64,000 nt of DNA from Stramenopiles sp. TOSAG23-2 (GCA_900128395.1 LT649243.1:1-64000); one strand, 5' to 3'; positions 13,792 through 53,600 are shown, counted from the stretch's first letter. Numbers and translations: made by a program. Notes: generated by a model from the sequence alone, not told the origin.

Positions 13792-13981
13792 GCTTTATCC
13801 TGTCTACTTACACACACACACACATCCTACATCAATATTATATATACGTAGTATGTAATATTTGTCCTAAAAAAAGCCAAAAAGCAGCTTTATCCTGTCT
13901 ACTTACACACACACACACATCCTACATCAATATTATATATACGTAGTATGTAATATTTGTCCTAAAAAAAGCCAAAAAGCA
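13792..13981. repeat. Direct tandem duplication, 2 x 95 bp, containing (CA)n
   Basis: gctttatcctgtctacttacacac...cctaaaaaaagccaaaaagca occurs at 13792-13886 and 13887-13981. Confidence 0.9.
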
Positions 13982-18834: not shown

Positions 18835-19416
18835 CAACAATATGTTGTGTAAACACTATCATACGAACTACGTACGACGTATTTATTGAATTCCATATAT
18901 ATATATATATACGACGTAGAGATGTTTATAACACATACTTTTTGGAGAGATCCCAGGGAGATCTTTTAATAATAGATATAATATACAAGTTTTTTAAAAG
19001 CTATCTAATACCAGTATACTGATATACCAATTAAATATATATACCTGATAAAGCCATGTTAAAAGAGGCCAGTATAAGTAACAGGAAAAATTAAAGAAAG
19101 ATTAAAATAAAAACTTATTCCTATATCTTTTAATATACTCTAAGCACACTAAGTACAGCGTGATAATAAATTGACAGAGACCAACAATCTTCTCTTCTTA
19201 TTATTATTATTTATCAAAAATATATTGAATATTGAATTAATTCTTTTTATTCACACTTATGCTTACGTCTAGGTATATTTATACAGATAGATAGAAAACC
19301 AATCAATAACCATCCATCCATTTATATATACGTCCTTTATATATTTGTGTGTGTGTGTGATTATTACCATATTCAAAATCCAATTGTACGTGAAAAAAAC
19401 AAACAAAAACGGAAAA

Positions 19417-27598: not shown

Positions 27599-28220
27599 AG
27601 TCCATTTTCGCAATTTGATGCTTATATACATAAATTATTAGATATTGATATATGGTTTTTGGCTATAATACAAAAGTTGCGAAAATCTCCTGCATTCCAA
27701 TTCTTGGTTCTTGCCGTGAATCACTTCGTACTTATGGCTATACTAAATACCTGTAATATATCTATCAAATATATACAATGGTATGTCTATCTTGTATTTT
27801 TTGTAAACTTTATTTCAAAAAGTTTTGGTTATTTTTAGAATTTAGAAGTTCAAAATTGCTGTAAAAAAAATAATAATATGTAACAGCACAACACTATTGC
27901 ACTATTATTAATAGTAGAAAATATATATATTATAAATACAAATACAAATATATTTCTACACATTGACAGCAAGAAAAAGTAAAACAAATCATCCAAACAA
28001 TATATATATAATAACTTCGTGTATGATATACATTTCATCATTGTGAATTTAATATTGAATATTTTCGTTCGTTTTTTTCCTTCCAGTCTTCTTACCATTG
28101 TTTGTTTGTTGTTCTATACTTTTATTTTTATTCAATAACATTTATTAATAATTTAATAATTATTAATACGTGTATGTATATATAACATTTTTGTCTTATT
28201 TTGTCTATAAAAAAAAAAAT

Positions 28221-31200
28221 ATGGATGTAACTAAATCTACTGTTGGTCGTGCACCATTACCGAAACGTACGGAAAGGGATATGCATTCAGATACATATGA
28301 AGCCAACTTAAAAAGTGGGACATTTGCATTGCCAAAAGGAGTAACATCGTTATCTCAATCATTTCAACGTTTTGAACTGGATAAACAGGCTGAAAAAGAA
28401 CTTGAAAAGATGCAACAGCGTTTGGAAGATGATAGACGCAAATATGAAATGTTAAAAGATATTAGAAAGAAGAAGCAACAAGCAGCAATGCATGCGCGTG
28501 CTACGGAACTCAGTGCTAGATTACAAGAGCTAGAAACACAAGAAAGTGATGAACGTTTTAAACGTGTGCAATTACGTGGACGTTTACAAAAATTAAGAGA
28601 AGAGGAAAAAAGTAAAGAAGATAGGGAAAGAGAGCTTAGTAAACAATTATGGGTTTTAGAGCGTGATCATGCAGTGGAAGAAATAGCAGAATTGAAAATG
28701 AAAGCAGCAGCTATTCGTGCAAAACGAGAAGCGGTTACTTTGCAATTAGATATAGCAGATACACATGTAACGACGATTGAGGAGGAACGTGTACAACGTG
28801 GTCGAAGCAATTACGATAAATTAAAAGACATGTTGAGCCATGCAGATACATTACAACAACAATTAGAAGCTGGTGGGTTTGATGAAGTGCAAAAAGCATC
28901 TGCTGCAACAAAATTATTAGATCAAGTAGAAACAGGAAAGAACCAAGGGGACGGTGGCCAATTATTTAAATTAAGCGACGAAGTAGAAAATATGCGTAAA
29001 ATGCAGCGTGAGCGTGAGGCTAGTCTACGTGCAAATCATTTAAAGCAATTAAATGCGAAGAGGAAAGAATTGCATGATAGACAAATGCAAATAACAATAG
29101 AAAGGAGAAATTTACGTCTTTTACAACGTAAAGGGGCAGATGCACTTGCGGATATTGAATTCGGTCATGGGCCTCCATTAGAATATATAATAGCAAATGA
29201 AAGAGCAAAACGGGAAGATGGGGAAGATGGGGATGTGTCTGAAGATACAGATTCAGAAGAAGAGCCACTAGATGAATTTGTTGAAAATGTTACAAAAAAT
29301 ATTAGAAATATAAAATTAAAAATGCAAGAATTAAAAGATGAATTGCCAAAAATTCCATTATTAAAAGTCAAAGGTAGATGGGAAAATACGCCTATGGGCC
29401 AGCCATATAATGGGTATATGGGGAAAAAGTCATATTTAAAATCACAAATGCCTACGTATAAAATTTGTAGAGAGTTTGCCTTTAATATTGTTGAAAAGAC
29501 TTTTTATAAATTATTTGTGCTTCGACCGACACGGAAAAATGCAGAAAAAGCTATTAGGCAATTAAATGATAGAAAGAAAATGGATTCTAGATTATTAGAA
29601 AAAGAGCAAGAAAACAAAGCAATGCGTTGGATATTGCAAGATATAGTAAATAGTGAAGTTCAAGACATTTGTTACAGCATTGCATATGAACGTAATTTAG
29701 TAGTAAAAAAATCAGAAACAATGGGTCTCAATTTAATTTTAAAATCATTTCCGGAAGATCAACTTCAAGGAAATATGTCAATTATGAAAAATGCATTTGA
29801 GGAAATGATTAAGCGAAGGGAGAAACGTAACGAGTCCTCCACATCAAGACGTGCCCATCAAAAATCGACATTGAATTTGACACATGATAAACGTCATGTT
29901 TCTCATAAACGTGCAAAAGATGTTGGTGTTAAAACTGCAGATGACAAAGAAGAAGAAAAAGAGGAGCTTGATCCAGACGTTGTATTTGTACCAACCGTAT
30001 CGCGTACATTAAATAGACCACAATTGCCGTTGTATTACGTCAAAACAGAGAAAGAGTATTGGAAACGTATCGATATCAAATGGTCCGAACTTACTCTTCC
30101 GTCTAATGTATTGAAGCGTGCAGGTTTAATTACATGCATCGCTCTTAGTCCGGATGGTCGATTTTTATATACTGGGCACGATAAAGGTTCCGGTTTGCTT
30201 TGGGATTGCTTTTGGCATCCACCATTATTGATTCGTGCGTCGTATCGTGATAAAATGCCAAAAGAAAAATTCTCCCCAGTCGTTCAAGCTATATTTGGTA
30301 TAGGTGGTAGTGGTCATCGTATTGCAACGATTGATAAGAAAAACATCGTACGTATTTGGTCCACTGAAACGATTGTTAAACAAAAAATACATTCTAAACT
30401 ATCAGAATTTTTCCCAGCAAAAATGCGAGATGTAGTAAAGAAACCACCACCAACATCATTAATTGCGATGATTAATCCAGCTGATCATGCGCAAACTATG
30501 AATAAGAGTGATAAAGAAGAGGCATTGTTTCCAACTGCACTTCGTTTTCACCCTTCGATCACGGTAACTGGACAACAACCATCATTAATGATTGGTTTAG
30601 GAAAAGGTTTAATAGTTAAGCATAATTTAGCATCTGACAGTCCTGTTTTATTTAAACGACCATATGCAACGGAAGACATAACAAACCCATTGATTAAAGG
30701 TAATACAAGAGATCCTGAGAAAATTGATGCAAATAATAAATTAAATGATTGTGGTTGTCGCACGAAACCAAAAGTGAAACGTGAATTTTTCCAAGCACAT
30801 ACGAATCGCATTATTTATGTAGATTTTGTTGGCACGGCATCATCGGAGGATGATCCAACTACGATGGCTGTATCTGTAGATGAAACTGGCCATGTTTTCT
30901 TTTGGCCATATACAAAAGAAGGTTTCAGTGGTTTTGGATGGTTTACTCCATCTCATAAATATAAGATTAGAAATCATACTACTGGAAAAACGGAAACTAC
31001 GAAATTAAAAGTAAAAGCGGCAACTTGCAACTTAGCACGTACACAATTAATTTTATTAGTCCATGCTAAAACATTTAAATTAGGTACAAAAAGCACGAAA
31101 AAAACTGGTGATTTACGCATATTATTTTTTGATTTGCAATCAAAAGAAGTTTTAAAATGGATGATACCTGTTAGTACAAAGCCTATTCACGAAGACGAAG

Positions 31201-31736
31201 ATGTTGGAATGTGTATTTCACCATTACTAGATGCTATCAGTAGCGATGTTGCTTACATTACGGTTGGCAGAGATATGGAAGCATATTCCTTAGCAACTGG
31301 CCAGCCATTATTAAAGGAACCATTGAGTGGTTTAAAATCACCACTTAAATTTAAAGGAACAAATCCGACGTTAATGCAAATCAATCCTGGTCATACAGCG
31401 TTATATGTGAGTGCCCCTAATGCTTCAAAAGTTTACATTGGTACAATCAAAGACATTAATACAAGTGTAGGTAGACGAGAGAAGAATAAAGATGTGAAAC
31501 ATATGATTATGAATGAAGCTGGTCGAAAAGATCGTGTACGTTTATTTACTACCGGACCAGAACATCGCGTTCGTTCCATTTATTGGGATATATCAGAACA
31601 TAATGTGGATCGTGAAGTTGAAGGTATTGTATATGAAATTGCACGTGATGCTGCTACTAAAGCAATACACAAAGCAATTGCAAAAAGAAAGAGAGAGCTG
31701 GAAGAGGAAAGGATGAAGCATCAAGTTGCTTTGTGA
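28221..31736 (+). CDS. Coiled-coil protein with a divergent C-terminal WD40-like propeller
   Basis: First ATG at 28221. E/K/R/Q-rich heptad region, then ITCIALSPDGRFLYTGHDKGSGLLWD, IVRIWS and FQAHTNRI...SVDETGHVFFW. Confidence 0.8.
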   Translation: MDVTKSTVGRAPLPKRTERDMHSDTYEANLKSGTFALPKGVTSLSQSFQRFELDKQAEKELEKMQQRLEDDRRKYEMLKDIRKKKQQAAMHARATELSARLQELETQESDERFKRVQLRGRLQKLREEEKSKEDRERELSKQLWVLERDHAVEEIAELKMKAAAIRAKREAVTLQLDIADTHVTTIEEERVQRGRSNYDKLKDMLSHADTLQQQLEAGGFDEVQKASAATKLLDQVETGKNQGDGGQLFKLSDEVENMRKMQREREASLRANHLKQLNAKRKELHDRQMQITIERRNLRLLQRKGADALADIEFGHGPPLEYIIANERAKREDGEDGDVSEDTDSEEEPLDEFVENVTKNIRNIKLKMQELKDELPKIPLLKVKGRWENTPMGQPYNGYMGKKSYLKSQMPTYKICREFAFNIVEKTFYKLFVLRPTRKNAEKAIRQLNDRKKMDSRLLEKEQENKAMRWILQDIVNSEVQDICYSIAYERNLVVKKSETMGLNLILKSFPEDQLQGNMSIMKNAFEEMIKRREKRNESSTSRRAHQKSTLNLTHDKRHVSHKRAKDVGVKTADDKEEEKEELDPDVVFVPTVSRTLNRPQLPLYYVKTEKEYWKRIDIKWSELTLPSNVLKRAGLITCIALSPDGRFLYTGHDKGSGLLWDCFWHPPLLIRASYRDKMPKEKFSPVVQAIFGIGGSGHRIATIDKKNIVRIWSTETIVKQKIHSKLSEFFPAKMRDVVKKPPPTSLIAMINPADHAQTMNKSDKEEALFPTALRFHPSITVTGQQPSLMIGLGKGLIVKHNLASDSPVLFKRPYATEDITNPLIKGNTRDPEKIDANNKLNDCGCRTKPKVKREFFQAHTNRIIYVDFVGTASSEDDPTTMAVSVDETGHVFFWPYTKEGFSGFGWFTPSHKYKIRNHTTGKTETTKLKVKAATCNLARTQLILLVHAKTFKLGTKSTKKTGDLRILFFDLQSKEVLKWMIPVSTKPIHEDEDVGMCISPLLDAISSDVAYITVGRDMEAYSLATGQPLLKEPLSGLKSPLKFKGTNPTLMQINPGHTALYVSAPNASKVYIGTIKDINTSVGRREKNKDVKHMIMNEAGRKDRVRLFTTGPEHRVRSIYWDISEHNVDREVEGIVYEIARDAATKAIHKAIAKRKRELEEERMKHQVAL

Positions 31737-38365: not shown

Positions 38366-38807
38366 ATGTAAATAATGCACGGTGCGTATGTATAGTATGT
38401 GTTTTTGTTCTGTCATTTAAGTAAAAATATATTTTGAAACTTTTTTGTGCATGTGTATACCAGTATACATATTTACATCTACAGTAGAGAGGAGGGAAAG
38501 GAGAAGAGGGGAGGAAGGAAGAGGGAAGAAATTTTCCTTTAAATCTTGTTGAGCTTAAATATTTTATATCTAAAGATTTTATATATATTGTGTGTGAAAA
38601 AATTTATGGTTTTTAAAAATCTAGAGCGATACAGAGTATATACGATTCTCGTACTTCGTATCATATAATATAATACGAATACAGTACATATCCCCTTTCC
38701 CCCTTCCATGTATGTGTTACGTCGTACATATTTCTCATTATATACTATTGTTCACACCCCTTTTGTTTTGATATTAATCCCCGTGTATGATGTATACTTC
38801 GTATAAT

Positions 38808-40091
38808 TCAATCTCTCCAACCATAGCTATTTGATCTTTTCGTCCTCTTTGTACTTGACGTGTTTCTAGTCATGTCATTATTCACACTTAATTTTGGAAT
38901 GTTTTTCTTATTTTCAACACCTTTACCTGGTACAAAACCAGTCGGTAAAACAATATTAGGTAATATTTTAGAATCATTGAAATCTTTTACTGTATCATTT
39001 AATGCAAAATTATCGCTTAATAAATTTCTAGTCATTGTATTATCATCATCATTTGCAGAAGATGCATTATTGTTATTATTATTTTCCCCAACAAATTCTT
39101 CATATGGAAATGCCCATTTATGTGCATATGCAATCATTAACATTTCAACACATAGACATAAATTATTTAAACCAGTTTTAACATCTTCGGTAGTAAATTT
39201 ACCTAAATCATGAATTAAATGAAAACGTGATAAAATTGCTAATAAAACACTTTGCCAAAAACTTAGAAAAAGTACTGCTTTTATACATAAAAATTTTGGC
39301 ACTGGAGAATACGGTTTTAAAGATTTTTTAAATGCTACATAAAATAATACAAGAATATATGCAGCATATGTAATAGACAAATTTTCCATAAATGTAACAT
39401 ATAGATATCCTTTATCATATGCAAATGTACCTTGATCATATACATCATTAAATTCACAAATAGCTGCAATTACAGTGAGGGTTGGTTTTAAAATTACAAA
39501 CTGGATGGTACCTCTTTTACATTTTTTAATGAAGGTCCGGTCAAGTTTCCAATCTTGCATACAATATTTAAATGGAAACATATGATGTACAATTTTTTTA
39601 TCATGGTGATTATCTTCAGCATCATCTTCTTCTCTTTCTTCAGTTAATCCTTCTTCTGTAGATGATACAATATTATTAAAATTATTATCCAAATGATCTA
39701 AAAATAAATGTTCACCACCATATTCTTTTGATAAATAATTTATCATTAACGATAAAAATAAATGTATAACATATGCTTCATAACAATCACGAAACATATC
39801 TAAATATACAGACGCTTTGATGAATCGAAGTGATAACCACGAATCTATCGCAAATATTGGTACAATCCATAATATTCCAACAATTTTACGTTGTATTTTC
39901 GGCGTAGTAAAATTGGCAAGGTGAGAATTAATTAAACGTAACGAAACGACACAAGCTAAAAAAGAACATATACCTGCAAAAATCCACGATAATAATTGTA
40001 AAATATGTATTAATTCCTCTTCACTATTTACATATGGTATGATGGTAGACGATGGTTTGGTGGTAGCGTTGTTGTTGGTGGTAATGGTCAT
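38808..40091 (-). CDS. TMEM184/OST-alpha family transporter
   Basis: ILWIVPIFAIDSWLSL, RDCYEAYVI, QFVILKP, PKFLCIKAVLFLSFWQ and CVEM...AHKWAFPY. Likely ATG at 40091. Confidence 0.92.
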   Translation of the reverse strand: MTITTNNNATTKPSSTIIPYVNSEEELIHILQLLSWIFAGICSFLACVVSLRLINSHLANFTTPKIQRKIVGILWIVPIFAIDSWLSLRFIKASVYLDMFRDCYEAYVIHLFLSLMINYLSKEYGGEHLFLDHLDNNFNNIVSSTEEGLTEEREEDDAEDNHHDKKIVHHMFPFKYCMQDWKLDRTFIKKCKRGTIQFVILKPTLTVIAAICEFNDVYDQGTFAYDKGYLYVTFMENLSITYAAYILVLFYVAFKKSLKPYSPVPKFLCIKAVLFLSFWQSVLLAILSRFHLIHDLGKFTTEDVKTGLNNLCLCVEMLMIAYAHKWAFPYEEFVGENNNNNNASSANDDDNTMTRNLLSDNFALNDTVKDFNDSKILPNIVLPTGFVPGKGVENKKNIPKLSVNNDMTRNTSSTKRTKRSNSYGWRD

Positions 40092-40604
40092 GGTGTTATA
40101 TTTTATTGTTGTATATATATATATATATAGCTTGCTCTTCAAATATATTGTATATTCTTCAATCAATCATTTGTTATATAGTCGTCTAGTTTTTTAGTTT
40201 TTTATTATTGATTTGTGTTTGTGTGTATATGTATAAATTCAACGTTTTTGAAATATTCTTCTTCATCTCATTCACTGCAACCACTCTCTGTTTTTTTTCT
40301 TCCGAAAAAAACTTTTATTATAATAATATTAATAACCTTAAACTATAATAATAAAAACAACCCCCTTACCCCCTTCTTCTTGTGATTTCAGGATTTAGAT
40401 TTGTGCATTTCTCAGTTTGAATTAATAATTTAGAAATTGTATACGAGAGTACGGATGTATTATATGTATATCCACAACAAATAAATTGTCTGTGTGTATG
40501 TGATAACACAATCAATTAGTTATAGATTATTTATTAAACGACATATTATTGGTTTTATTATATATTTTAAACAGTGAATATTAAAAAAAAACAAAAATTT
40601 TAAA

Positions 40605-41846
40605 ATGGAAGATGTGAAATCTATTTTTATCACATTTTTTCAATCATTTTTTAATTTATGGTTTATTGGTTTAATAGCGTTAATTTATATATTATTATAT
40701 TCTTTACAAGATGCATTGATATACCATCCACGTAATTATCATGGAAGATATCAAAATTATTATCATAAAGCAGAAAATGTTGCAAAATCTTCGTTAAAGA
40801 TGCCAAATGGAGGTATGATAAAAAATATCCAATATGTAACAACAGATAAAATAAAACATACAGCATATTGGATTCCTCCATTTAAACGTGATTATTTTAA
40901 AAGATGTAATGATGAATATTTACAAAAAATAAAAGAGGATCAGTCTGAAAATGTATTACCACATTTTGAATTATGGATAACTGGTAATGGTAATGCAGGA
41001 TTAGCAAAAGATTGGTTAGCATTTTCAGCTGAATATGTCAAGAAACAATATGATCGTAAAGCATCCTCTTTGAAAAAAAAATATGTCCCGATATCATTTT
41101 TGTTAATAGATTATCCAGGATATGGTGCAAATGTTGGTGGAATGCCATCACCATCTAGTATTTTAGAATCATACCAATTAGCTGTAAATATTGTACAAAT
41201 TGAAATGAGAAAATATTTTAGTGCAACAAATATTAAAAAATGTAATGAAAAAATTTATGGTAATAATAATAATGATCAAAATGATAAAAATCGTCATCTT
41301 CATCATCATCATTATTATCATGGATTAAATTTTAAATTAAATGCTATAGCACATTCAATTGGAAGTAGTGCTGTTCTTCAATATGGTGCTACAACACTTG
41401 GTGATCGAAAATTACATATTCATAAATATATATTAATTTCACCATTTAGTAGTATGTTTGAAATGACAAAAGTTGTTATAGGCCCATTACCATTTGTGAA
41501 ATACATGTTACAACATGATTGGGATAATTTAAGATATGTGAAACAAATTAGTGAATGTCATAATTGTAATGAAAAGGAACGTGTAAGATATAATAAAAAT
41601 GGTGTTACAATTAATATCTTTCATGGAACAAAAGATGAAGTTGTTCCATTTCGTATGGGTCAAGAAGTATATGAATTTGTGATGGAGAAGTTAGTGAATG
41701 GTAAGATGATGATTGATTCTCGTGGTGAAAATGATGTAGAGATGATGTTTCATACAAAATTTACATCGATTAATGGTGCAAATCATAATAATATTGTGAG
41801 TGTAGGAAAAAATGAAATTATGAATCAGATGTTGAAGGAGTTTTGA
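40605..41846 (+). CDS. ABHD13/ABHD17-like alpha/beta hydrolase with an N-terminal TM anchor
   Basis: LQDALIYHP, GNGNAG, IDYPGYG, nucleophile AHSIG, ISPFSS, HGTKDEVVP and GANHNN give a Ser-Asp-His triad. Confidence 0.88.
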   Translation: MEDVKSIFITFFQSFFNLWFIGLIALIYILLYSLQDALIYHPRNYHGRYQNYYHKAENVAKSSLKMPNGGMIKNIQYVTTDKIKHTAYWIPPFKRDYFKRCNDEYLQKIKEDQSENVLPHFELWITGNGNAGLAKDWLAFSAEYVKKQYDRKASSLKKKYVPISFLLIDYPGYGANVGGMPSPSSILESYQLAVNIVQIEMRKYFSATNIKKCNEKIYGNNNNDQNDKNRHLHHHHYYHGLNFKLNAIAHSIGSSAVLQYGATTLGDRKLHIHKYILISPFSSMFEMTKVVIGPLPFVKYMLQHDWDNLRYVKQISECHNCNEKERVRYNKNGVTINIFHGTKDEVVPFRMGQEVYEFVMEKLVNGKMMIDSRGENDVEMMFHTKFTSINGANHNNIVSVGKNEIMNQMLKEF

Positions 41847-41906
41847 AGGGTGAGGGTTATATAGGGATATATTGTAGTTGGTAGTATATAAATATATATA
41901 TATTAA

Positions 41907-44900
41907 TTAGAATGTGTATATCACCATCCCTCCTTCCACTTGTTGATACCCGTTTGATCCATCTAGTTTATATTGTATTATAGCATTTAATTGTGATTTC
42001 ATATTATCACTAAGTTGATTATTATATAGGTACAATGTCCTTAATGTATTGTTTGTTTTTAATCCATCAATAATACTTTGTATTCCACCATCATCAGTAA
42101 TATTATTATTATCTAGGTCCAATCTCGTTAATGTATTGTTTGATTTTAACAATTCACCAATAGCTAATGCATCCTCATCCATGAGTTTCTTTCCACTCAA
42201 ATCCAAATTTGTTTTCCCATCAAATTCTTTTTCCCATTTAATATATGCAGCACTTTTGTTTATGTCTACTGCGTTGGTGTTATCATCTTCTTGGTCATTT
42301 GTATCATTTAACTCAACATTAATATCTTCTAAAACATTAAATAGTGATTGCTTCGGTTGACCTAACTTTTGCTCTATGTTTTCTGGGATATTATTTACAT
42401 TAATAAAAGCTTGTTTTACCTTCTTGACTTTGGCGGGTGCTTTCGCTTCCATTGGCTTCTCTACGTTTGAAGGCATTTTATCATCTACTATCGTCTCTTC
42501 ACTAGGTTTGCTTTGCACTTTGAGCTGCTTTGTGGATGTATTGTTGGTATCTAAATTCTTACGATCATTCTTCTTATTTTCAATTTTCGTCATCAATTTA
42601 CTTTGCTTATCATACACTACTTTATTACTTTTTTTTGAATCTTCCATTTGGCTTTTATCCAGTTCTGTATCTGTCCATATACTATGATAAAGTCCATATT
42701 GTACAGGCTTATCAACTATACCAACAAATAATTTTGCTCGTGTAATAGCACGATATACAGATGCTTTTTTCTTATCTAGTATCGACTCTTCGTCATCATC
42801 TTTTATTGTTTCATCAAAACCAACAACAATTGCAGCATCGTATTCTAAACCATCTTGATTTGAAATAGTATCAACAACTATTTGTACTGATTTATGTCTT
42901 AATTGTGGAAATGTACCAAACATTGTTTCTGCATTGAAAAATTCAAAATCCATTTCAAGACCTTTCTCGTCAATTTTATCTCGCAATTTCATCGTAAACT
43001 CATCTACGGTTAATGAGGGATTATCATCTGGTAATATGATCACAACACGACCACGGCTTAATAGGAACCATCCAAGATCTTTCTCGTCTTTCATTGCAAA
43101 AACAGGTTTAACATGCTCTAAAGCATTAATAGTTCTCATAATATATTGTGTTATTGTATCATTATTATTATCATCATCCTTGTTGGAATCGACAATTAAA
43201 AATGGTTCAATGGGACTTCCAAATTCCTTATTTTTACATGATGGTGTTTCTACATATTTTCTATATAAATGAGAGAACAAGGTAATTGCCTGTGTTGAAC
43301 GTACAACATCACGAAGTTCAATATTGTAAACTTCTGCTTGGCGTTTGTGTATTCTTTTATCACGATTCATTGCCTCGTTTATTCTATCATTAATATCTTC
43401 ATTTGCATTGGCACCTTGATTATTGTCTGAAAGCACTACACGATGAGTCGCTTTCTTAAAATATTCATATATATTTTCCCATATATGCATATCATCATTT
43501 TCATGAATAATATGATGCGCTTCATCAATTACGGCTAAATCATAATTTTGAACTGTCTCATCCTTATCAATTTCAACAAATTTCAAATACGCATTACCTT
43601 GCTCATTTAGTTGAAGTATAGCTTTGTGTGGCTTTTCATTAGTCTTTCTTGTACAAAAATGGATACGATTTAAAATCGATTCTGGATCATGCCGTACTGC
43701 GTCATTATTATTATCATTCTCTTCTCCCTTGGTCTCGTCATCACCACGTTTAACTTTCCTACTTAACATACGTATTAATATCCATCTTGCAAAAAAATAA
43801 GCAAATCCATTTTGTGTGCATGCAAAAAGTATGTTTGCATTTGGATTTTCTATTAACATTTTACATATAAAATATAAACCTAAAAATGTTTTACCCGTAC
43901 CAGCAAATCCTTTTATGTGAACACATCCAATGTTATGTTTTTCGTTTGCATTGTATTTCTCGTATTCATTGTATTTCTCTTCTTGTTCAATGGTTAATTC
44001 ATCTTGTGCTAATAATTTGTTTTTGCAAATTTCCTGAAGCATACTTAGCATTTTAAATGATACGTTTTCAACTGATATGTTCTCAACCAATACTTCTTTC
44101 AATTTCATTTCTTGTTTAATGCGATCTATCTCCTTTCCATCATTTTTGTTTAAAGCAGCAACAACTTTTGCAAAGTTTTCTGGTTTTTCAATAAAGTTGA
44201 AAAACAATTTTAAAAAAGGTGTATGATTATTTGATGCTTGCAGAAGGAGCAATTCTTTTATATGTTCAGTGTATATTTTTTTAATTTTAACATCGTTTTC
44301 TTTAAAAATGGGATCTCCACCTTGACCATCTTCCGATAAATTAAATATTGGATCAGAAACGTTGATATTCTTAAATTCTGTCGTTATATTTTTTACCTTC
44401 AATGCTACAGCAGTTTTTCCACATTCAAAAGCATCTTTGGGCAATTTACCGCCTTTAAAAAGCTCATAATAAAAATCTTCGCTTATAATAGGGGCAGCAC
44501 CAGAACAAACTTTTTTCTCAAAACCGTATGAATATAAGCCACCTTTTTCAATAAAATGTTGCACAACATTACTATCGTCACTGGCTGTTTCACACGCACT
44601 CATCGTAAATAATGTAACACCATGTTGAATTAATGTTTCGATAAACTTATCATATTCAATTCGCTCTATAGTATATGGTTTGGTTGTTATATCAAGAAAG
44701 AAAAGGCCTAAAATTTTATTTAGGATTTCAGCGTTTCCATGACCAATAAAGTGACAATATTGATATTTTTTTGATCGTATTTGTTTGTAGAACTTAAGCA
44801 CAGAACCTTTAAATATATCTGCACCTGTAATTTTTTGAATTTCCTCTGCTTCCTTTTTACTTTCTTCAAAATCAACAGCTAAATAAATTATACCTTTTGC

Positions 44901-46277
44901 ATTGCGATACAAAGTTGTTAGAATATGATTACCATGCTGATTTTGCTCTAACATTTCTATTTTTTCAAGTATTTCTTTAAATTTTAGATTCATAAAATTA
45001 TTAAGTTTTGAATCTTTCGATTTAACATAGTTGATGAACATCTTTAATCTTAATACCGCGTTTGTTACACGTTCAGATATTTTTGTTTGTTCCTTAGAAT
45101 TTTTCTTTAGACTTGCATCCATACAGTCCACATACTGTTGTATCCCTTTTGTATCTTTCGTAATTTTAATTTGCTTTTGCAATAATTCTTGGATACAAGC
45201 AAATATCAGTGCATCTTTAGCATTAGTATCGACAAGTAATCGTTTTCCTTCTTTTACATCGCCCTTTTCATCATATAGAGAGTAATTTTTTTCATCCACT
45301 TTGTCTTTATAACATATAGTTCCATCATCTTCTTCATCATTACTTTTTACCAATGTTATTTCAGATCCATCTTCCAATCTCACTAATTGAATCTTTTCGT
45401 TCTCTGGTAAATCCGGGTGTTGAAATATTTTCCATAATTCTTCTGCTATAAAACCAGCAGTCAAAATACCTGAATTTTTCCATTTGTAAATATATAGTCT
45501 TAAACGATCAAGTTTATATAATATAGATTTTTTTTCTAATTCACCCTTTATTATTTTAAATGCGGAATGGGATAGTACAGTTAATTGATCAGTAATTACT
45601 GTAATAAATTTCGCATGATTTGCATGGACAAAATTTGCTTCAATTTTGTGTTTTGATGAATTATTAGTTACTTCATTATTATTATCATCGTAAAGAGGTT
45701 GGACTATATTCGGTGGCCTTGCTCTACCATTTTGTAAACCTACTTGTAAATTACTATTTTCTAACAATTTATTTCGTACATCTTTACGTTTCCCATCTGC
45801 TTGTCTTTTGGGAATATACACTCGTTTTGTATATATTACAGAAAAAACTAACAGACTAGGGTCAATACGTTGTTGGTGGGAAAGTTGCTGTTTGTTATTA
45901 TTATTGTTGTTATCATTATCGCTACTTGCTGTTAAAGGTTTGACGATTGTAAAATCAACTTTTTTTGTATTGCCAGCATTATCTTTGCACATAATAAAAT
46001 GTGGCTCGAACATTCTTTTTTGACTTGAATTATGAGGTATTTTATTACCTTTTTTGGGATCAAGTGGATCTCCCTCCAATGTAATCCCATCTTTACTCCA
46101 GAAGTATTCTTTATTTCCAAGAGGATTCAACAAATGAACCTCATGTTGAAGCGCTAAAACTTGAAATGCACGACGATTTTTATCAATTAAATATGAGGTA
46201 TATGGTACATCTTCTTTCCCCTTTTTAACTCGTATTTTAATTTGGTGGTTTCCTTGTTGATTTGTTCTAGTTGCCAT
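41907..46277 (-). CDS. CHAT (caspase-like) protease - Schlafen-type SF1 helicase/NTPase - LRR fusion protein
   Basis: CHAT dyad HFIGHG (His near 44740) and MSACET (Cys near 44593), plus SEDFYYELF. Helicase motifs GFAGTGKT, VIDEAHH, LSDNNQ, LRDVVRST, DTISNQDGLEY and YRAITRAK. C-terminal LRRs LTRLDLDNNNITDDG and LRTLYLYNNQLSD. Confidence 0.82.
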   Translation of the reverse strand: MATRTNQQGNHQIKIRVKKGKEDVPYTSYLIDKNRRAFQVLALQHEVHLLNPLGNKEYFWSKDGITLEGDPLDPKKGNKIPHNSSQKRMFEPHFIMCKDNAGNTKKVDFTIVKPLTASSDNDNNNNNNKQQLSHQQRIDPSLLVFSVIYTKRVYIPKRQADGKRKDVRNKLLENSNLQVGLQNGRARPPNIVQPLYDDNNNEVTNNSSKHKIEANFVHANHAKFITVITDQLTVLSHSAFKIIKGELEKKSILYKLDRLRLYIYKWKNSGILTAGFIAEELWKIFQHPDLPENEKIQLVRLEDGSEITLVKSNDEEDDGTICYKDKVDEKNYSLYDEKGDVKEGKRLLVDTNAKDALIFACIQELLQKQIKITKDTKGIQQYVDCMDASLKKNSKEQTKISERVTNAVLRLKMFINYVKSKDSKLNNFMNLKFKEILEKIEMLEQNQHGNHILTTLYRNAKGIIYLAVDFEESKKEAEEIQKITGADIFKGSVLKFYKQIRSKKYQYCHFIGHGNAEILNKILGLFFLDITTKPYTIERIEYDKFIETLIQHGVTLFTMSACETASDDSNVVQHFIEKGGLYSYGFEKKVCSGAAPIISEDFYYELFKGGKLPKDAFECGKTAVALKVKNITTEFKNINVSDPIFNLSEDGQGGDPIFKENDVKIKKIYTEHIKELLLLQASNNHTPFLKLFFNFIEKPENFAKVVAALNKNDGKEIDRIKQEMKLKEVLVENISVENVSFKMLSMLQEICKNKLLAQDELTIEQEEKYNEYEKYNANEKHNIGCVHIKGFAGTGKTFLGLYFICKMLIENPNANILFACTQNGFAYFFARWILIRMLSRKVKRGDDETKGEENDNNNDAVRHDPESILNRIHFCTRKTNEKPHKAILQLNEQGNAYLKFVEIDKDETVQNYDLAVIDEAHHIIHENDDMHIWENIYEYFKKATHRVVLSDNNQGANANEDINDRINEAMNRDKRIHKRQAEVYNIELRDVVRSTQAITLFSHLYRKYVETPSCKNKEFGSPIEPFLIVDSNKDDDNNNDTITQYIMRTINALEHVKPVFAMKDEKDLGWFLLSRGRVVIILPDDNPSLTVDEFTMKLRDKIDEKGLEMDFEFFNAETMFGTFPQLRHKSVQIVVDTISNQDGLEYDAAIVVGFDETIKDDDEESILDKKKASVYRAITRAKLFVGIVDKPVQYGLYHSIWTDTELDKSQMEDSKKSNKVVYDKQSKLMTKIENKKNDRKNLDTNNTSTKQLKVQSKPSEETIVDDKMPSNVEKPMEAKAPAKVKKVKQAFINVNNIPENIEQKLGQPKQSLFNVLEDINVELNDTNDQEDDNTNAVDINKSAAYIKWEKEFDGKTNLDLSGKKLMDEDALAIGELLKSNNTLTRLDLDNNNITDDGGIQSIIDGLKTNNTLRTLYLYNNQLSDNMKSQLNAIIQYKLDGSNGYQQVEGGMVIYTF

Positions 46278-47435
46278 TACGTATGATTTTTTTTCCCGTT
46301 TTATTGTTTTTCCTAGATTTCTACGTGTGTGAGTGTGTATATATATATATACTGCTTGTTTCTAAGTAAAATAAATTATGATTTTGTTTATACTGTTTAT
46401 AATATACTGATGTGTGTAATACTATAACTACAACTATAGTCGTCGTATATCGATACAAAGATATATTTACTTTTTAGTCAAACGAAATCAATATCTCCAC
46501 GCGTATATAAATATACTAATAATACTACATGCATCATCATGAAAACCACTTTAAAGCTTTATATTAATGATACACAATTACATTTTTATAGCTATAATTA
46601 AACCGCACCGTGACTTTTTATTCAGGTTCTGTTACGTATGGATAGAAAGACCTCACTATCCTTCATCCTTCACGCTCTATAATATACCATGGTGGTATAC
46701 TGTAGTAAGCAATGCTATTTTGTTCTTACAGTACGTACGTACTCTGGTATCTCGTAACTCGAAACCAGCTTCGCCTATCCCCTATCCCCCCCCTCTACAC
46801 CACTACTTTTTACTTCAGAATTTTCTTCCTCAAAATATCCGATAAAATGACCTCGCTAACAAATGAAAATGGGTATAAATTACCAAATAAATGACAGGAA
46901 AATAGCAGGTATATAAATTATATAGGATATTTTACAATCATTTCGTACTTTAGGTATAGGAAGTATGTAATTTTAAACCCTGTTTGCTAACCGGATCGGT
47001 GGGTACAATTTAAAGAATTAGTGTTAATTTCCACGAGCTACCTCGTTGTTTTGATTACCCTATTTTCTATCACGATTGATGGGTATCATTTAAGGAACAT
47101 GCATATAATATATTAATTTTAACAAAGGTTGATGTCATTAAATACAATTATAATATTACAACGATGAAAATACTATATAAAAACAATGCACTTAAACAAA
47201 TGCACATACTAAAATACAGAAATGGCAAATATATATACACAAACAGATATATAAAGTTAACAGAAGATATTAAAAGAAATAAATATATTAATTAAAAGCG
47301 GATATCCTAAACTAGATCATCCAAAACTAAGAAAACAAAGAAGGAAGAACAACAAAGTTGTTGTTTGTTATATTATTATAAGAAGACGAGAAAACAAAAA
47401 GCAAAAAAAAGCAAAAATTAAAAAACAAAAACAAA

Positions 47436-49901
47436 ATGAACAAAACAATAACCAAAAGCAAAAACAATAACCAAAAGCAAAATGATGTGAATCGTGCATC
47501 AGCTCCATATAGACTACGTGAAGATGTTGATATAGTGGCACAATCCAGGAAATTCTGGGGAAAATTCTTATGTGATAAGTATGAACTCGTTCGGTTTGTA
47601 ACAATTGGTGCAATTGCAAAATCAAAATTACAAACCGTACTTGGTGGTAGTTTCCAATGCGAGGGCGTTGAGTCAAAAAAATTTGATATCAATGTATCAA
47701 AAAAAGGGTACTCCCCTCAAAAAAAAAAGCACGAACAAAAGGCTGTTATGCCAGAGCTTTCGTGCAAACGTTGGGGCGCAGATGTACTCCAAGAAGTGGA
47801 AAAATATATAAAAGAAAATGCAGGAGCTGAAAAAGCTAAAGCGGAAGCAGAAAAAGCTAAAGCGGATAAGAAAAAAGAAGCAGACGAATCAAATGCAAAG
47901 AAAGCTTCACGGGAGGTGTATGATGAAAAAATGACAGAGTATAGGTGGAATCGCAAGAGTTTAAGAATTTTCGTGAATGTATTTAAAAATTTAGGTAGAG
48001 AAAAATCTTCAAAGTCCATACGCAAGCGTATCAGACATACATTCATTTCGCTGATGGAAGCATCAGGTTTAGATGAACTATTTACACATTATTTTGAAGA
48101 GATTACACCTGTAAAGTCAAAAGAAAAGAAGGTGCTAAAGTCTTTTCAAAAAAAGAAGGTGATAAAGATGGTAAAAAAAGAAATAAATATATATATAAAG
48201 CAAATTACCCTTCAAAAATTGTTCCCAAAAAAGGCACTTTGGGTCAATATGCAAAAGCAAGTAGTAACTACTACAACACATGCCCACTTGCAAACAGCAT
48301 TGTACGGGCCAGTATCTGCTGGTTTTCGTGTATTACGTCTTCGCGGTGGCATGCAAATCTTCGTCAAAACGTTAAATGGGACAACCATTACGGTTGATGT
48401 AGACCCATCTGATACGGTGGAAGCCTTAAAAGCTGCCATCCAAGATAGGCAAGGTGTACCGCCAAATAAACAACGTTTGATTTTTGGAGGTAAACAATTA
48501 GACAATGATCGCCCATTGTCTTATTACAACGTCCAGAAAGAATCGACGTTGCATTTAGTATTACGTCTTCGAGGTGGTGTGAAAAGATGTTGTGTCTGCA
48601 CTGATACCTTTGATGACGAAAGCATCATTGTAGAATGTAGTAACGGGCACGCATTTTGTGGCGGTTGTCGAAGCCAATGGTGGGGAGTAACGGGGATACT
48701 CAATCCTCACGATGAAATTGACATAACTTCGATGTCTACAAAATGTTTACATCACAGCTGCAACAGTGGGCGTATTGCCTTAGTCGCTGATATAGAAGCG
48801 ACTGTAAAGCACACGGATGGGCAAGCCATTGCTAAAGTTCTTCGTCATTTGTATGAAACGTTTGTTAACGCAAGTGAAGCTTCTTCAGGCAAGCTAGACG
48901 ACGACAACAATGCCGCCTATGACACAATTCTATTAGCCTTGGATCATTTCAAGTGCCCAAATCCGAAATGTGACATGAGGCATGAATCAAATCCAGCGGC
49001 GTGTCGTGCAGAGGAATGTCTGAAATGCAAATGTAAGTTTTGCCATTTATGCGGTCACATTCAGCGAGAAGGAGAAGACATTCACAGGCATGTGCTATTG
49101 TGTTCTGATGGTGACATGCGTATTTCAGCTCAACACCCTAAATTCAAATTGAAACGTAGGAAGTGGGCTTTGGTAGAAATATATAATGACCTGCTTGGTT
49201 TCACACCCAGTGCTAGGGTGCATGCAGTTCGCAGGTTTCTAAACGATGACACGTTGTGGGTTTCACCGCCATGGAATTTAATGGATGTTGGTAAAGATAC
49301 ATACATTAAAATGTGTCGTGATGGCAAGTATAAGATGCATAATTTACAAACGTTTCAACGGGGGCCATTGGCGGAAACATCGATGCTGAATTCACTTGTA
49401 CAATCCTGCTCAAAGACAGTCGTTGAAGAAGTAGGCAAAGAATCCATTAAAAAAATGGCGACAGAGACTGTCAGAAAGACAGTGCAAGAAAACGTTTTAA
49501 AGTACGTGAAACGTCATGGCATTAGCAAATTGTTCCACAGTTCCCGAAAGGCAATTTGGGTCAATGTGCAAAAACACTTTGTAACCAGTACAACAAATGC
49601 TGGCTTGCAAGCAGGATTGCATGGGTTAGCTTCCGCTGGGGTTGGTGTAATTTTAGAAATCCCCAGAGGCATATACCAGTCTTATGATGACCACAAACGG
49701 CTGGCAAATGGTGAAATAGATGAGGAGAAACTTCAGGAGCTAAAGAGCATTAACTTTAAAGAAAGTGTAACCAATGTTGTTGGAACCAGTGTGGTAGCTG
49801 CTGCGGCCGTCACTTGTGGGGCTGGTGCTGTTGGCTTTTTTGTGGCCAACTTCACATATGGCGCAGTTTCCTCAATCTATTATGGTACACGTCGCCGTTA
49901 A
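47436..49901 (+). CDS. Ubiquitin-fusion polyprotein: N-terminal region ending in LRLRGG, divergent ubiquitin (48351-48578), RING plus Rcat-type zinc fingers, and Gly/Ala-rich hydrophobic tail
   Basis: [15 protein letters not shown]...[17 protein letters not shown]...[11 protein letters not shown]...CLHHSC, then CPNPKC...[19 protein letters not shown]...HRHVLLC. C-terminal [23 protein letters not shown]. True start codon is uncertain. Confidence 0.8.
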
Positions 49902-50081
49902 AACCGGGGGGAATTCAAAACCATCAAATTTTGGAAAACCTATGGACTGTTCGCAACACTCTCATCGAGTGTGTCGTGTGCTTCATACGCAATCGGTAGG
50001 CGTGTTTATTCATTCAATATATATATATATATATATAAATAATTTCCTATGTTTATACGTACCAGTATAATAAATGAGTAT

Positions 50082-50316
50082 TTAAATCATTTTTGATTTG
50101 AGATGTTAATTTCCGGGAGTAAAAGAAATTTATATATTATAATACATGAGTAAGAGAAAATTTTTATACGAAGTATATATTAAATCATTTTTGATTTGAG
50201 ATGTTAATTTCCGGGAGTAAAAGAAATTTATATATTATAATACATGAGTAAGAGAAAATTTTTATACGAAGTATATATTTTATAATAATACATTTGAGTA
50301 AGAGAAAATTTTTACG
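50082..50316. repeat. Tandem duplication, about 2.4 copies of a ~98-bp unit
   Basis: ttaaatcatttttgatttgagatgttaatttccgggagtaaaagaaattt...gagtaagagaaaattttt repeated, with a partial third copy. Confidence 0.88.
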
Positions 50317-50650
50317 ACTCGTATATATATAATACGTATATAATGATAATAGTAGAGAGGATTAAATCCATTTCTTAGAGATTGAGTATTGAGCAGTATC
50401 ATATTAATATATATTAGTATTCGTCGGAGATACGACGTACGTACGAAGTATAACGTAAAAAATTATTGCGTGTATAGTAATTTTAAGATTTAACCATATC
50501 ATTATTACCGTATTACGTAATATTAGACAATCTTTTTTTATTATTCGTACGGGTATGATAAATATCATACAAAATTTGTATATGTATCATACGAATTCGT
50601 ACTTAGTTCGTACAAAAAAACATTTTTTTTACGAGCCGTTTCGTTAAATT

Positions 50651-53600
50651 TTATTCCCGCAACCCCAAAAAACTAGACCAACTTGGTGGTAAAATTTCAC
50701 TCAATTTCATCGCATTTCTTCCTTTACCTTCTCCCTTGTTATCCTTTGCACCAACAGCACCATTATCATCACTCTCCTTCCTTTGCTTTACAACCGTCGG
50801 ATCTACTATTTCTTTTTCCTCTACAAAATTAAAACCCATTTTCTTACTCATATCATCACTTGCAATAGTAGTAGATGAAGGTGTAAATGCTTCGGAACGT
50901 ATTACGGAAGAAGAATTCATTGATTTCATTTCTCCATTGTTGTTATTATTATTCTCAATTTGCATTTCATCACTTTTTGTCTCCATCATCGTCTTCATCT
51001 TCGTTGTAGTAGTAGAAGAAGTAGATGATACATTTGGTGACACAAATTTCAACGGTTGATTCATATCTCGCTTCAAATCCATCATTGGCGATCTCATAGA
51101 ATTATTCATCATATCTGTACTTGCATTCATACTACTTTCAAACGTACTTGTTGTATCATCCATTGTTGAAGATGTTTCTAAAGATACATTACCATCCTCA
51201 TCTGCTACTGAAGAAATCGTTGGATCAATCGATATTTTAATTTCTTCTGTTTCTATTTCAGTAGTGGTGGTGGTTGTTGTTGTAGGTGAAACTACATTCA
51301 TACTAGTAGTAGTAGTAGTAGCAGTATTGCTAATTTCTACCTTCTTCTCATCCTTCTCTTCATCAACATCCATTTTACTATTACTATCCTCCCCATTCGT
51401 ATTTACTACCATCTCGCTATCTTTTTCATTATTACTATTATTATCATTCTCTTTCATTTCCTCTTTTTCTTCTTCTTCCTCCTCCTCCTCCTCCTCCTCC
51501 TCTTCCTCTTCCAAAGATGAAGTGAAAAAATTATCCGTCATAATCTTGCAAAAATCTTCTCTTAAAACATCCAATCGTTTTAACGCAACATCTTCTTGAG
51601 AACAATTAATAATTGTAATTGCTTCCCTATGAAAAATATTAACAATCGCTTCCTTTGTTGCACAAATGTTACATATTTTTTTCGCCAATACCGATAATCG
51701 CTTTGATGATTTTTCAATATTATCACCTTGATCTTCTTCTTTTGTAGCAGTAGTACTATCCGTAAAAGTTGTTGCTGTTTCTTCCGTTGCCACACTCGTC
51801 GTAGTTGTAGTATTTGCCGCATTCATTTCGTCGTTTCCTCCCACTACCACATCAACTTTCACATTATCCGTACTTGTCTTCCCGCTACTACTACTACCAT
51901 CATCATCACTCGTCGCAAATAAATCCTTTTGAACATTTAATGCTTTTTCCTTCATCGACGATATAAAATCATCAATTTGTACTTTCAAACCATCCTTTGA
52001 TATAGTTATTTTTTCTTTTTTTACACGATTACGATTACCTCTACGGCTTCTACCACTATTTTCATTTGTTTCCTCTTTATGTTTTTTAACATGTTCAAAA
52101 TCAATACCTTTTACCCTACGATTATCTAATATATATTTCACATCATAGGTTTCATTTTCTTCATCAACATTTACAATTTTAGCTAATCCACCATCATCGT
52201 TTAAACCAGGCCATTTACGTCTCATGCAATCTACTAAATCACCAACCTTAGGCATTCCTTCACCAGTAGCAGCAGCTTCTTCTGCTTCTTTTAAAAATTG
52301 TGCTTCTTCCGTAATACCACGTGGATCTACCATTTTTCGTTGATGTCTTAAATCATTCAATGTATCTAAAATATCATTTCGTGCATTTTGATGACATTTA
52401 GAAAATTTATCACGCCATAAATTTACCATGTCTAATGTAGTAAACATAGTAGTTTCTTCCATATAATAATTCATGTAATTCGTTGTTGTTGTAATAGTAC
52501 TTGTTGAATTGTCTTCTCTCTCTTCTTGCAAATTTTTCATTGTTGGATGTTTCTTCTTTTTGGTCATATCAAAAATACCTGGTATAATGAAAAATTTAGG
52601 TTCAATTACGGTCCATCCTTCATCACACATATCTAAATCCAATAAATCTTTCAAATAGAATTTTGGCATGACATATTTCTTCGGTGAATCTTCATCCTCA
52701 TCTTCATATTCACTTTCATATTCTTCTGATTCAGAACTACTTTCCTCTTCACTACTATCACTACTACTGCTACTGCCATCACTATCGTCGCCAACAACAC
52801 TACTACTAATACTACCACCACCAACAACAACATTACTATCCTGTGTACTACTATTTGTAATACTAGATTGACTAAAACCATTCGTAATACCAGCTGCTAA
52901 TAACGCTGCTTGTTCTTCTTTTGCTTTTAATTTTTCAAGTTTTCTTAATCTACGTCTTTCCCTATCTCTACGTCTTCTTTCTTCCAATTTTCTTGCTTGT
53001 AAACGTAATTTTTCCATTTGCTCTTTGTAATTTGTCTCTTCATTATTTAATGTTTCTAATAAATAATCAAAAATACTTTTACGTACTGGTATATCACATG
53101 CTCTTCGTTTTAAACTACGTAAGAAAAAAATACGTTCTTTTAAATCGGTTTTACTTAAATATTCTTTTCGTTCAATTGCACCACACCATTGTTTACATTC
53201 AGCTTGTTTTTCTTTCAACCAACGTAAACTTTGTTCAATTCGTGGATTAATGGATATGTTAAAATAAAATGGTTGATCTAAAATATTTTTTTCCAACGCT
53301 ATCATATTCGTTACATTAATTTTTCCAGCCTCACCCATTGATAATTGACGTTGTAAATCTGCTACTTTACATTGCCAATCCCATGCCCATTTTTGTTGAA
53401 TTTTTTTCTTTTCCTTATGTTGTTGCAAACGTTGTTGTACTAATCGTGCACGTTCCTCTTGTTGTTTTAAATATGCTTGATTTCTAGCTTCCATTTCTTT
53501 AATTTTTGCAGGTGTTTTACCATTGTTTCCATTTTTACCATTGTTGTTGTTGTTGTTATTAAAGGTATTGTTGCTGTTGCCATTGCTGCTGCTGTTATTA

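Follow-up and report, generated by a model that had tools for sequence, protein, structure and literature searches.

The 64,000-nucleotide (nt) stretch of DNA from Stramenopiles sp. TOSAG23-2 analyzed here (GCA_900128395.1 LT649243.1:1-64000, the whole of which is referred to as the window) contains two divergently transcribed genes, here named gene A and gene B, which encode a receptor-like protein of a helicase-leucine-rich repeat (LRR) family and a chimeric ubiquitin-fusion precursor, respectively. Gene A (41907-46277, minus strand) is an intact open reading frame (ORF) of 1456 amino acids (aa), and gene B (47436-49901, plus strand) is an intact ORF of 821 aa. An earlier note, made from the sequence alone, had described the two ORFs as divergent and about 1.16 kb apart, and its boundaries proved exact, with a gap of 1158 bp (46278-47435) that is a candidate shared promoter. 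What is new is that TIR-type paralogues of gene A, found in metagenome contigs, are likewise arranged head to head with genes that carry an internal ubiquitin ending in LRLRGG. In light of this, we suggest tentatively that genes A and B belong to one immune-type module.

Gene A, a receptor-like protein with an exchangeable module

A search of 5.8 billion protein clusters retrieved seven relatives of gene A at an E value of 1e-3 or lower, the closest of which (P0003) is 58% identical. Alignment of the family and Pfam scans of its members revealed a single scaffold with a conserved NTPase core, in which the module directly upstream of the NTPase is swapped from one member to another. This position is taken by a CHAT-like module in gene A and P0003, by TIR_2 in P0004 and in the proteins of two metagenome loci described below (L003 and L004), and by Peptidase_C14 in the distant relative P0009.

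The N-terminal domain of gene A (aa 1-235; 45573-46277) is poorly conserved, with about 25% identity among four family members, and has no match to a Pfam family; it is possibly released through self-cleavage. It is followed by a predicted S74/ICA-type intramolecular chaperone module (aa 236-300; 45378-45572) with an S236-x4-K241 dyad, which the earlier note had missed. The Pfam family Peptidase_S74 (PF13884) matches gene A with 24.3 bits, P0004 with 24.8 bits, and the L004 protein with 23.9 bits, all above the cut-off of 22, and S236 and K241 are invariant in the four family members aligned (4/4). No S74 match at an E value of 0.01 or lower was obtained for P0003. In a protein atlas, the clusters nearest to aa 236-300 were S74 clusters, at 0.81 only, and a profile search of the PDB with this module returned no S74 chain, its single match being a spurious one to fumarate reductase (E value of 0.003). 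A coiled coil is predicted between the S74 module and the module in the effector position. According to the available sections of PMC8326128, Ser-Lys dyads are formed by S587 and K592 in MYRF and by S911 and K916 in the endosialidase endoNF, and cleavage requires trimerization. Gene A thus resembles MYRF and the phage endosialidase tailspikes both in the S-x4-K spacing and in the coiled coil after the module; unlike MYRF, it contains neither an Ndt80-type DNA-binding domain nor a transmembrane segment.

In the effector position, gene A has a CHAT-like His/Cys module (aa 456-690; 44208-44912), which was recognized by a sub-threshold Pfam CHAT match together with a pair of motifs, HFIGHG (aa 509-514) and MSACETA (aa 559-565, within LFTMSACETA and including C562), both of which are identical in P0003. 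The catalytic residues of CHAT proteases are a His and a Cys; gene A has a His and then a Cys, each located behind a hydrophobic strand, as in the CHAT dyad. CHAT clusters were also the nearest protein-atlas clusters to this region (0.90-0.91), which we take as a lead only, and the CHAT assignment is weak.

The central part of gene A is a predicted helicase-type P-loop NTPase (aa 740-1210; 42648-44060; Pfam ResIII, E value of 8.6e-8). Its motifs GFAGTGKT (aa 790-797), DEAH (aa 918-921, within VIDEAHH), and YRAITRAK (aa 1175-1182) are invariant in five of five family members, and FARWILIR and VVDTISNQDGLEYD are further conserved motifs of the NTPase core of the family. The NTPase of the relatives also matches Pfam DEAD and the SLFN group 3 helicase family. 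Since matches in the PDB were faint (SLFN5, Dda, and MDA5, all with E values of at least 0.015), the assignment to helicase superfamily SF1 or SF2 is left open. Scans of viral and prokaryote genome contigs revealed no relatives of the helicase core, but these were narrow peptide-pattern scans and hence give a weak negative.

At the C terminus, gene A has RI-type LRRs (aa 1341-1456; 41910-42257) that match LRR proteins in the PDB with an E value of 5.8e-15 and the LRRs of NLRP1 with an E value of 7e-4. These LRRs were the only part of gene A matched in the PDB sequence search, and Pfam LRR_6 was sub-threshold on them. The LRR end of the gene (window positions 41704-42237) is covered to a very high total depth by contigs of marine metagenomes and metatranscriptomes, and the LRR repeat type, NNITD...LKTNNTL, seems to be widespread in marine organisms; the probable cause of the high depth here and at 49714-50247 is that many organisms contribute repeated LRR and low-complexity sequence.

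The overall order of gene A, with an effector (TIR or caspase fold), an NTPase, and C-terminal RI-type LRRs, resembles that of NLR/STAND receptors such as animal NLRs and plant TIR-NLRs, as does the swapping of the effector module among paralogues. Unlike in NLRs, the NTPase of gene A is of the helicase type (ResIII, DEAD, and SLFN group 3) and not NACHT or NB-ARC, for which no Pfam match was obtained in the gene A protein, and its effector comes after an S74/ICA module and a coiled coil. From its domains, gene A therefore looks like an NLR-like receptor that is not a STAND protein.

Gene B, a chimeric ubiquitin fusion

Gene B starts with a basic, lineage-specific N-module (aa 1-264; 47436-48227), for which a single relative, P0024, was found (69% identity across 44% of the query). 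P0024 is a protein of 360 aa that consists of the N-module, a different and more diverged ubiquitin-like domain ending in LRLSGG, and an acidic tail, which suggests that a pattern of N-module, ubiquitin or ubiquitin-like domain, and variable cargo recurs. Because P0024 matches gene B in the N-module but not in the ubiquitin-like domain that comes next, gene B is, as judged from these comparisons, a chimera with ubiquitin at the joint.

The joint itself is marked by an internal duplication, which was detected by self-matches at both the nucleotide and the protein levels. Copy A (aa 265-298; 48228-48329) directly follows the N-module, and copy A', which is rich in Gly and Ala and amphipathic, lies in the distal part of the gene (aa 661-739; 49416-49652). 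The nucleotide match has a 103-nt core of 77% identity (48230-48332 versus 49547-49649), and the protein match extends over aa 224-300 versus aa 661-739 (41% identity; E value of 3e-13). An orphan ubiquitin tail, VLRLRGG (aa 299-305; 48330-48350), is placed exactly where the duplicated segment (aa 224-300) ends, and polyubiquitin chains align over aa 299-382; a 21-nt repeat is shared between positions 48330 and 48558. The ubiquitin domain proper (aa 306-381; 48351-48578) ends in LRLRGG and matches Pfam ubiquitin (PF00240) with 99 bits and an E value of 1.3e-28. By a hand count from the alignment, 55 of its 76 residues are identical to those of human ubiquitin; lysines K6, K27, K48, and K63 are retained, and K11, K29, and K33 are lost. 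NCBIfam gave a single Rad23 ubiquitin-domain match, far under its cut-off. A seawater-metagenome contig joins position 48557 back to 48330, adding one 228-nt diverged-ubiquitin unit, which indicates either a variable copy number or a related polyubiquitin-like gene.

The base composition changes at the same place. The GC content of gene B is 0.34 to 0.36 before nt 48330 and 0.42 to 0.45 after it, the rise beginning at the ubiquitin, which bears out the earlier statement that the gene is more GC-rich from about 48300. The GC content at third codon positions (GC3) of gene B, 0.356, is the highest of 20 ORFs, the remaining 19 of which span 0.14 to 0.30, and it reaches 0.39 to 0.40 from aa 382 onward; that of gene A (0.21) is typical of the window.

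An exhaustive search of 1.84 billion representatives with aa 380-821 identified nine relatives at an E value of 1e-3 or lower (top match, E value of 3.7e-19 and 32% identity), none of which was returned by a word-based search. Wherever a source is given, these relatives come from marine metagenomes or protist transcriptomes, and a narrow peptide-pattern scan of viral contigs, a weak negative, found no members of the family. The family profile aligns a predicted RBR-type RING1 (aa 385-442; 48588-48761; ligand pattern C-x2-C...C-x3-H-x2-C-x2-C...C-x4-C) to residues 126-188 of ARIH2, and an Rcat-like module (aa 507-556; 48954-49103) to ARIH2 residues 290-336. In this alignment, C523, the candidate catalytic residue, falls opposite the Cys of GGCNHM, the catalytic site of ARIH2. 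C507, P508, C512, C523, A525, C528, C531, C536, C539, H550, and H552 are invariant in all 10 sequences (10/10). The position of the IBR is taken by a linker (aa 443-506; 48762-48953) that is helical in the model and contains three His; because there is no cysteine among the 64 residues between C442 and C507, gene B has no IBR zinc module, and the family alignment shows the same gap. The family profile matches ARIH2 with both modules (E value of 8.3e-6), as well as CUL9, parkin RING2, and HHARI RING2, and Pfam IBR was sub-threshold on the Rcat-like module. The AlphaFold2 model of gene B has a predicted local distance difference test score (pLDDT) of 56, with values of 72 to 84 within RING1, and its top Foldseek matches are all RBR ligases, albeit weak ones (E values of at least 8.4e-4; TM scores of 0.14 to 0.25). 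Alignments and model thus point to an RBR-like candidate ligase that lacks an IBR.

Near its C terminus, gene B has a Gly/Ala-rich hydrophobic stretch and putative membrane anchor (aa 777-807; 49764-49856; Kyte-Doolittle 19-residue maximum of 2.09). It is a single stretch of 31 residues followed by 14 further residues, as in tail-anchored proteins. The tails of P0012 and P0015 are comparable, and P0014 and P0016 have ordinary multi-transmembrane regions. In Pfam, the tail gave only a sub-threshold match to Nexin_C (20.3 versus 22.3 bits), and a match of the P0012 tail to Gly-zipper_YMGG (E value of 0.18) is insignificant. No gasdermin or other pore-former match was obtained for gene B in Pfam or PADLOC, and no NTPase or LRR in Pfam.

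In parkin, a ubiquitin-like domain lies N terminal to the RBR, and RNF144A and RNF144B have a C-terminal membrane anchor; gene B resembles the former in the position of its ubiquitin domain relative to the RBR-like part and the latter in its C-terminal anchor. It shares with RBR ligases such as ARIH1 (HHARI), ARIH2, and parkin an RBR-type RING1 with a C-x4-C last pair and an Rcat-like module. Unlike these ligases, it has the 64-residue Cys-free helical linker in place of the IBR, its ubiquitin keeps a cleavable LRLRGG, and its family is rare, with nine matches in the 1.84 billion representatives. Ubiquitin fusions, both internal and N terminal, to diverse partners including zinc RING-finger proteins have been described in protists (Sibbald et al. 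2019, PMC6332867). Gene B differs from those covered in the accessible part of that survey in that its partner is RBR-like with a membrane anchor, in that an orphan ubiquitin tail marks the recombination joint, and in that linkage exists between the ubiquitin-bearing genes and a family of receptor-like genes.

Given this build, gene B could be a recent and possibly nonfunctional chimera that arose by ubiquitin-repeat recombination and has no role with gene A. The orphan VLRLRGG exactly at the junction of the duplicated segment, the step-up in GC3 at the same junction, and P0024, which has the N-module in common and then diverges, all speak for such an origin. We nevertheless regard this explanation as improbable, since the 821-codon frame is intact, the invariant zinc ligands of the family and the candidate catalytic Cys are all retained, the duplicated segments are 77% identical at the nucleotide level, so that the event is not very recent, and a contig from an RNA library matches the diverged ubiquitin. 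Contigs of a polyA metatranscriptome cover 48366-48577 in this diverged ubiquitin of gene B with two differences and 45042-45248 in gene A with no differences, which we take as hints of expression only. Bins from 48646 to 49713, spanning the RING-Rcat part up to the tail, had nearly no contig cover in four runs, which proves nothing, and we gave no weight to contig joints with short sides, such as one connecting 41909 to 52367, which are unreliable.

Recurrence of the pairing at related loci

Four loci, L001 to L004, were identified when the gene A alignment was used to scan metagenome contigs. L001 is the contig of P0003 and has only 600 nt of upstream sequence, which says nothing about neighbors; hence, four loci (the window, L002, L003, and L004) are informative, each having a relative of gene A and readable upstream DNA. 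At L002, a TIR-type paralogue (9410-13792, plus strand) lies head to head with an ORF (1-7530, minus strand) that encodes at least 2510 aa, and at L004, a paralogue (5726-10261, plus strand) lies head to head with an ORF of 1124 aa that contains one ubiquitin ending in VLRLRGG and followed by Met. A head-to-head neighbor with one or more internal LRLRGG ubiquitins is therefore present at three of the four informative loci. In total, the DNA of the window and these loci contains 40 non-nested ORFs with a length of 150 aa or more; three of them bear ubiquitin, and these fill three of the four upstream-neighbor slots (hypergeometric P value of 6e-4, or 5e-3 with L002 and L004 counted as one event; both values are rough, as the loci are few and three of them belong to a single assembly). 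Linkage of homologues in related DNA, which the earlier note had asked to be looked for, was thus found, with a ubiquitin neighbor at L002 and L004 and not at L003.

The L002 partner, which is open at its 3' end, contains five ubiquitin units that end in VVLRLRGG plus Met and are interspersed between unrelated blocks, namely, C2H2 fingers, a repeat region, an ankyrin-containing region, and MORN repeats, and this layout resembles that of a polyprotein whose parts are spaced by ubiquitin. Close to the end of this giant ORF is an orphan WLRLRGGM, and the L004 partner has a degenerate orphan ubiquitin tail, LSGG. An unrelated repeat protein is also encoded near the L002 paralogue (19366-20229, minus strand), its ORF consisting of SSFNGDLSSWDVSKVT repeats with a Cys-rich end.

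Identity is 64% between the L002 and L004 receptors and about 40% between either of them and the gene A protein; therefore, the arrangement has survived deep divergence. The two partners share an N terminus (51%) and a zinc-finger-plus-ubiquitin block (44%), and the two loci also share a 355-bp intergenic block (82%). Comparison of the window intergenic region with those of L002 and L004 revealed no similarity or shared motif, and no flanking genes are common to the window and L002 to L004. Ubiquitin is the sole constant element of the partner genes, and neither the RBR-like part nor the hydrophobic tail is present in the L002 and L004 partners. Taken together, the comparisons indicate that the adjacency of genes A and B looks nonrandom and that the linkage is probably real and tracks the helicase-LRR scaffold and not the CHAT module.

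This pattern bears directly on the mechanism proposed in the earlier note, namely, that the CHAT protease encoded by gene A would act on gene B, by cleavage or activation, and so turn the Gly/Ala-rich tail of gene B into a membrane-damaging death effector. Bacterial CHAT and caspase-like proteases are often encoded beside their substrates, as in gasdermin systems and Craspase, and protease-gasdermin pairs provide the logic of this model. Gene A does contain a CHAT-like His/Cys motif, the two genes are head to head so that a candidate CHAT-like protease adjoins a membrane-targeted protein, and the hydrophobic tail of gene B has an amphipathic Gly/Ala segment upstream of it. However, TIR-type paralogues without a protease are paired equally, and their partners have neither such a tail nor an RBR part. 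The tail is one 31-residue stretch at the very C terminus in the style of tail-anchored proteins, relatives of gene B (P0014 and P0016) carry ordinary multi-transmembrane regions instead, and, unlike in the bacterial pairs, there is no gasdermin-like or Csx30-like partner and the pairing is not protease specific. We consider this mechanism highly unlikely. The earlier reading was supported in part, in that the adjacency is nonrandom in appearance and recurs; its specific mechanism was not supported.

Since an intact LRLRGG ubiquitin followed by further protein is the only feature conserved in the three partners, it is also conceivable that the partner acts as a tripwire whose LRLRGG junctions bait viral deubiquitinases or proteases and whose integrity or products are monitored by gene A. 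The orphan LRLRGG remnants in gene B and the L002 partner and the degenerate LSGG in the L004 partner would fit such an arrangement. The idea is purely inferential, though, and host deubiquitinases normally cleave LRLRGG fusion junctions constitutively, so that we give it very little credence.

The genes around the pair are ordinary ones. The window is AT-rich (GC content of about 0.3) and has intron-free long ORFs for typical eukaryotic proteins, including a tuberin with Rap-GAP, Cdc37, a kinase-WD40 protein, an RCC1-filamin protein, and an Ost-alpha transporter. In agreement with the conserved housekeeping surroundings described previously, the pair is flanked by the genes for the Ost-alpha transporter, for a protein that matches alpha/beta-hydrolases weakly, for a DnaJ-domain protein, and for tuberin and Cdc37. 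The window yielded no tRNA gene, no Rfam match was found in a scan of 41000-51000, the intergenic region included, and no paralogues of gene A or gene B were found elsewhere in the window. The tandem duplication reported to follow gene B is a perfect repeat (50082-50279, plus strand; 2.0 x 98 bp, 100% identity) with a partial and degenerate third copy and no further copy in the window; its connection to the two genes is only positional. A 16-nt motif, TGTTAATTTCCNSGAG, flanks gene B, being present at 47022-47037, which is 414 nt 5' of the ATG, and once within each 98-bp repeat unit (50104-50119 and 50202-50217). These three matches compare with 0.02 expected, but the motif was spotted post hoc and two of its copies are due to the duplication.

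Of the words sampled from the region, a fraction of 0.21 to 0.35 was present in seawater and other marine metagenomes and 0.93 to 0.95 in two small DNA runs, and near-identical long contigs were found in seawater metagenomes, such as one of 1536 nt that matches 38603-40100 without a single difference. The organism is accordingly a marine protist, and a dictyostelid origin, considered at first, was rejected. Elsewhere in the window, two paralogues of the Y_phosphatase3 family of tyrosine phosphatases were noticed in tandem (22755-23951 and 24052-25320, minus strand), as were three ORFs (319-3963, 15562-18834, and 28170-31736) of about 1100 to 1200 aa each with no Pfam family at an E value of 0.001 or lower.

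A possible two-gene module and its biological meaning

With a probability that we put at roughly 0.4, genes A and B constitute a two-gene divergent immune-type module of a marine protist, in which a receptor is co-regulated with a ubiquitin/E3 protein. Gene A would be a self-contained receptor-effector, in which the RI-type LRRs sense a ligand, the helicase-type NTPase acts as a switch, and the CHAT-like caspase-fold module serves as the effector; the S74/ICA module and the coiled coil could assemble the protein and release its N-terminal 235 residues. Host deubiquitinases would be expected to cut gene B after G381 and thereby yield two products. One would comprise the N-module and the diverged ubiquitin, whose GG end would now be free, and the other would be an RBR-like ligase anchored in the membrane, having RING1 and an Rcat with C523 but lacking an IBR. 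Co-regulation of the two genes would come from the 1.16-kb region that they share, and gene B would supply ubiquitin-based signaling or control at membranes for the response triggered by gene A; the two proteins might also be physically linked. Because the linkage follows the helicase-LRR scaffold and ubiquitin is the only constant of the partners, a model built around the ubiquitin module fits better than one built around the protease. The orphan ubiquitin tails in gene B and the L002 partner, and the degenerate one in the L004 partner, further suggest that cargo is shuffled by recombination between ubiquitin repeats.

Several observations weigh against this module. Only four loci are informative, and the paralogues at L002, L003, and L004 all stem from a single assembly, which leaves at most two independent events; at L003, the upstream neighbor is lumazine-synthase-like and contains no ubiquitin. 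(The L003 paralogue, a TIR-helicase-LRR protein at 9374-12874 on the plus strand, does not include the N-terminal/S74 part, and its LRRs are interrupted by an in-frame stop at 12191-12193, which may reflect either a pseudogene or an error in sequencing.) The L002 and L004 partners have only ubiquitin in common with gene B (44 to 53%), and a common origin of the pairs is unproven because the ubiquitin of gene B is nearer to canonical ubiquitin (72%) than to those of the partners (44 to 53%). Gene B may be a recent arrival, since its composition is unlike that of gene A and it has no close relative in the assemblies of the gene A relatives. Of the domain labels given in the earlier note, those of the helicase, LRRs, ubiquitin, RING/Rcat, and hydrophobic tail stood, but CHAT (PF12770) reached only 17.6 bits in gene A (E value of 0.0027) and 18.2 bits in P0003, below the curated cut-off of 24; the AlphaFold2 model of this region has a pLDDT of 39.7, too low for a fold search, and a PDB profile search with it gave 0 matches. 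Likewise, no PADLOC family matched the gene A or gene B protein, and contigs from RNA libraries reveal neither strand, expression level, nor co-regulation.

Many of these points would be expected if the two genes were unrelated neighbors, an independent receptor beside an ordinary tail-anchored RBR-like ubiquitin fusion, with the recurrence reflecting block duplication or a clustering of fast-evolving families. Adjacency in eukaryotes is weak evidence, and, as far as the accessible part of PMC6332867 goes, ubiquitin fusions, including internal and ubiquitin-RING ones, are common in some protists. Against this explanation, the pairing is seen at three of four informative loci, with ubiquitin in none of about 30 other ORFs, the loci share no flanking genes, so that the pair alone was kept or copied, and the arrangement persists at 40 to 64% protein identity. 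We see unrelated neighbors as a serious contender, about which we are doubtful.

A more far-reaching version is that the locus represents an undescribed protist immunity cassette, in which a helicase-NTPase analogue of NLRs, whose CHAT, TIR, or caspase effectors are interchangeable and which has a self-cleaving trimerization module of the phage-tailspike type, is combined head to head with a ubiquitin-delimited polyprotein whose cargo would be released at LRLRGG and reshuffled as its ubiquitin repeats recombine. In gene B, this cargo would be a diverged ubiquitin together with an RBR ligase that has a membrane anchor and no IBR. We hold the complete cassette to be unlikely, and return to the simpler two-gene module for comparison with known systems.

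In plants, paired NLRs can be encoded head to head, and the module would resemble these in that a receptor-like gene is divergent with its partner; unlike in the plant pairs, this partner is a ubiquitin-fusion gene and not a paralogue of the receptor. NTP-dependent conflict systems of prokaryotes are also tied to ubiquitin-like conjugation and to TIR- or caspase-type effectors, according to the portion of Kaur et al. 2020 (PMC7159879) at hand; in contrast to them, the locus described here is eukaryotic, and a narrow pattern scan of prokaryote contigs returned no relative of its helicase core. In the part of the literature covered, we found no description of an S74-CHAT/TIR-helicase-LRR architecture or of its pairing with a ubiquitin gene.

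The innate immunity of the protists that dominate the oceans, heterotrophs and algae alike, is little known, and the recurrent pairing at related loci hints at an undescribed protist defense module. If this is true, helicase-NTPase receptors with an NLR-style swapping of effectors would represent a parallel solution to intracellular sensing, and the conserved link to ubiquitin fusions would tie ubiquitin-type signaling to such receptors outside animals and plants. The RING1-Rcat family without an IBR would widen the range of RBR-type ligases, and the S74 module would be the second eukaryotic use, after MYRF, of the self-cleavage device of phage tailspikes.

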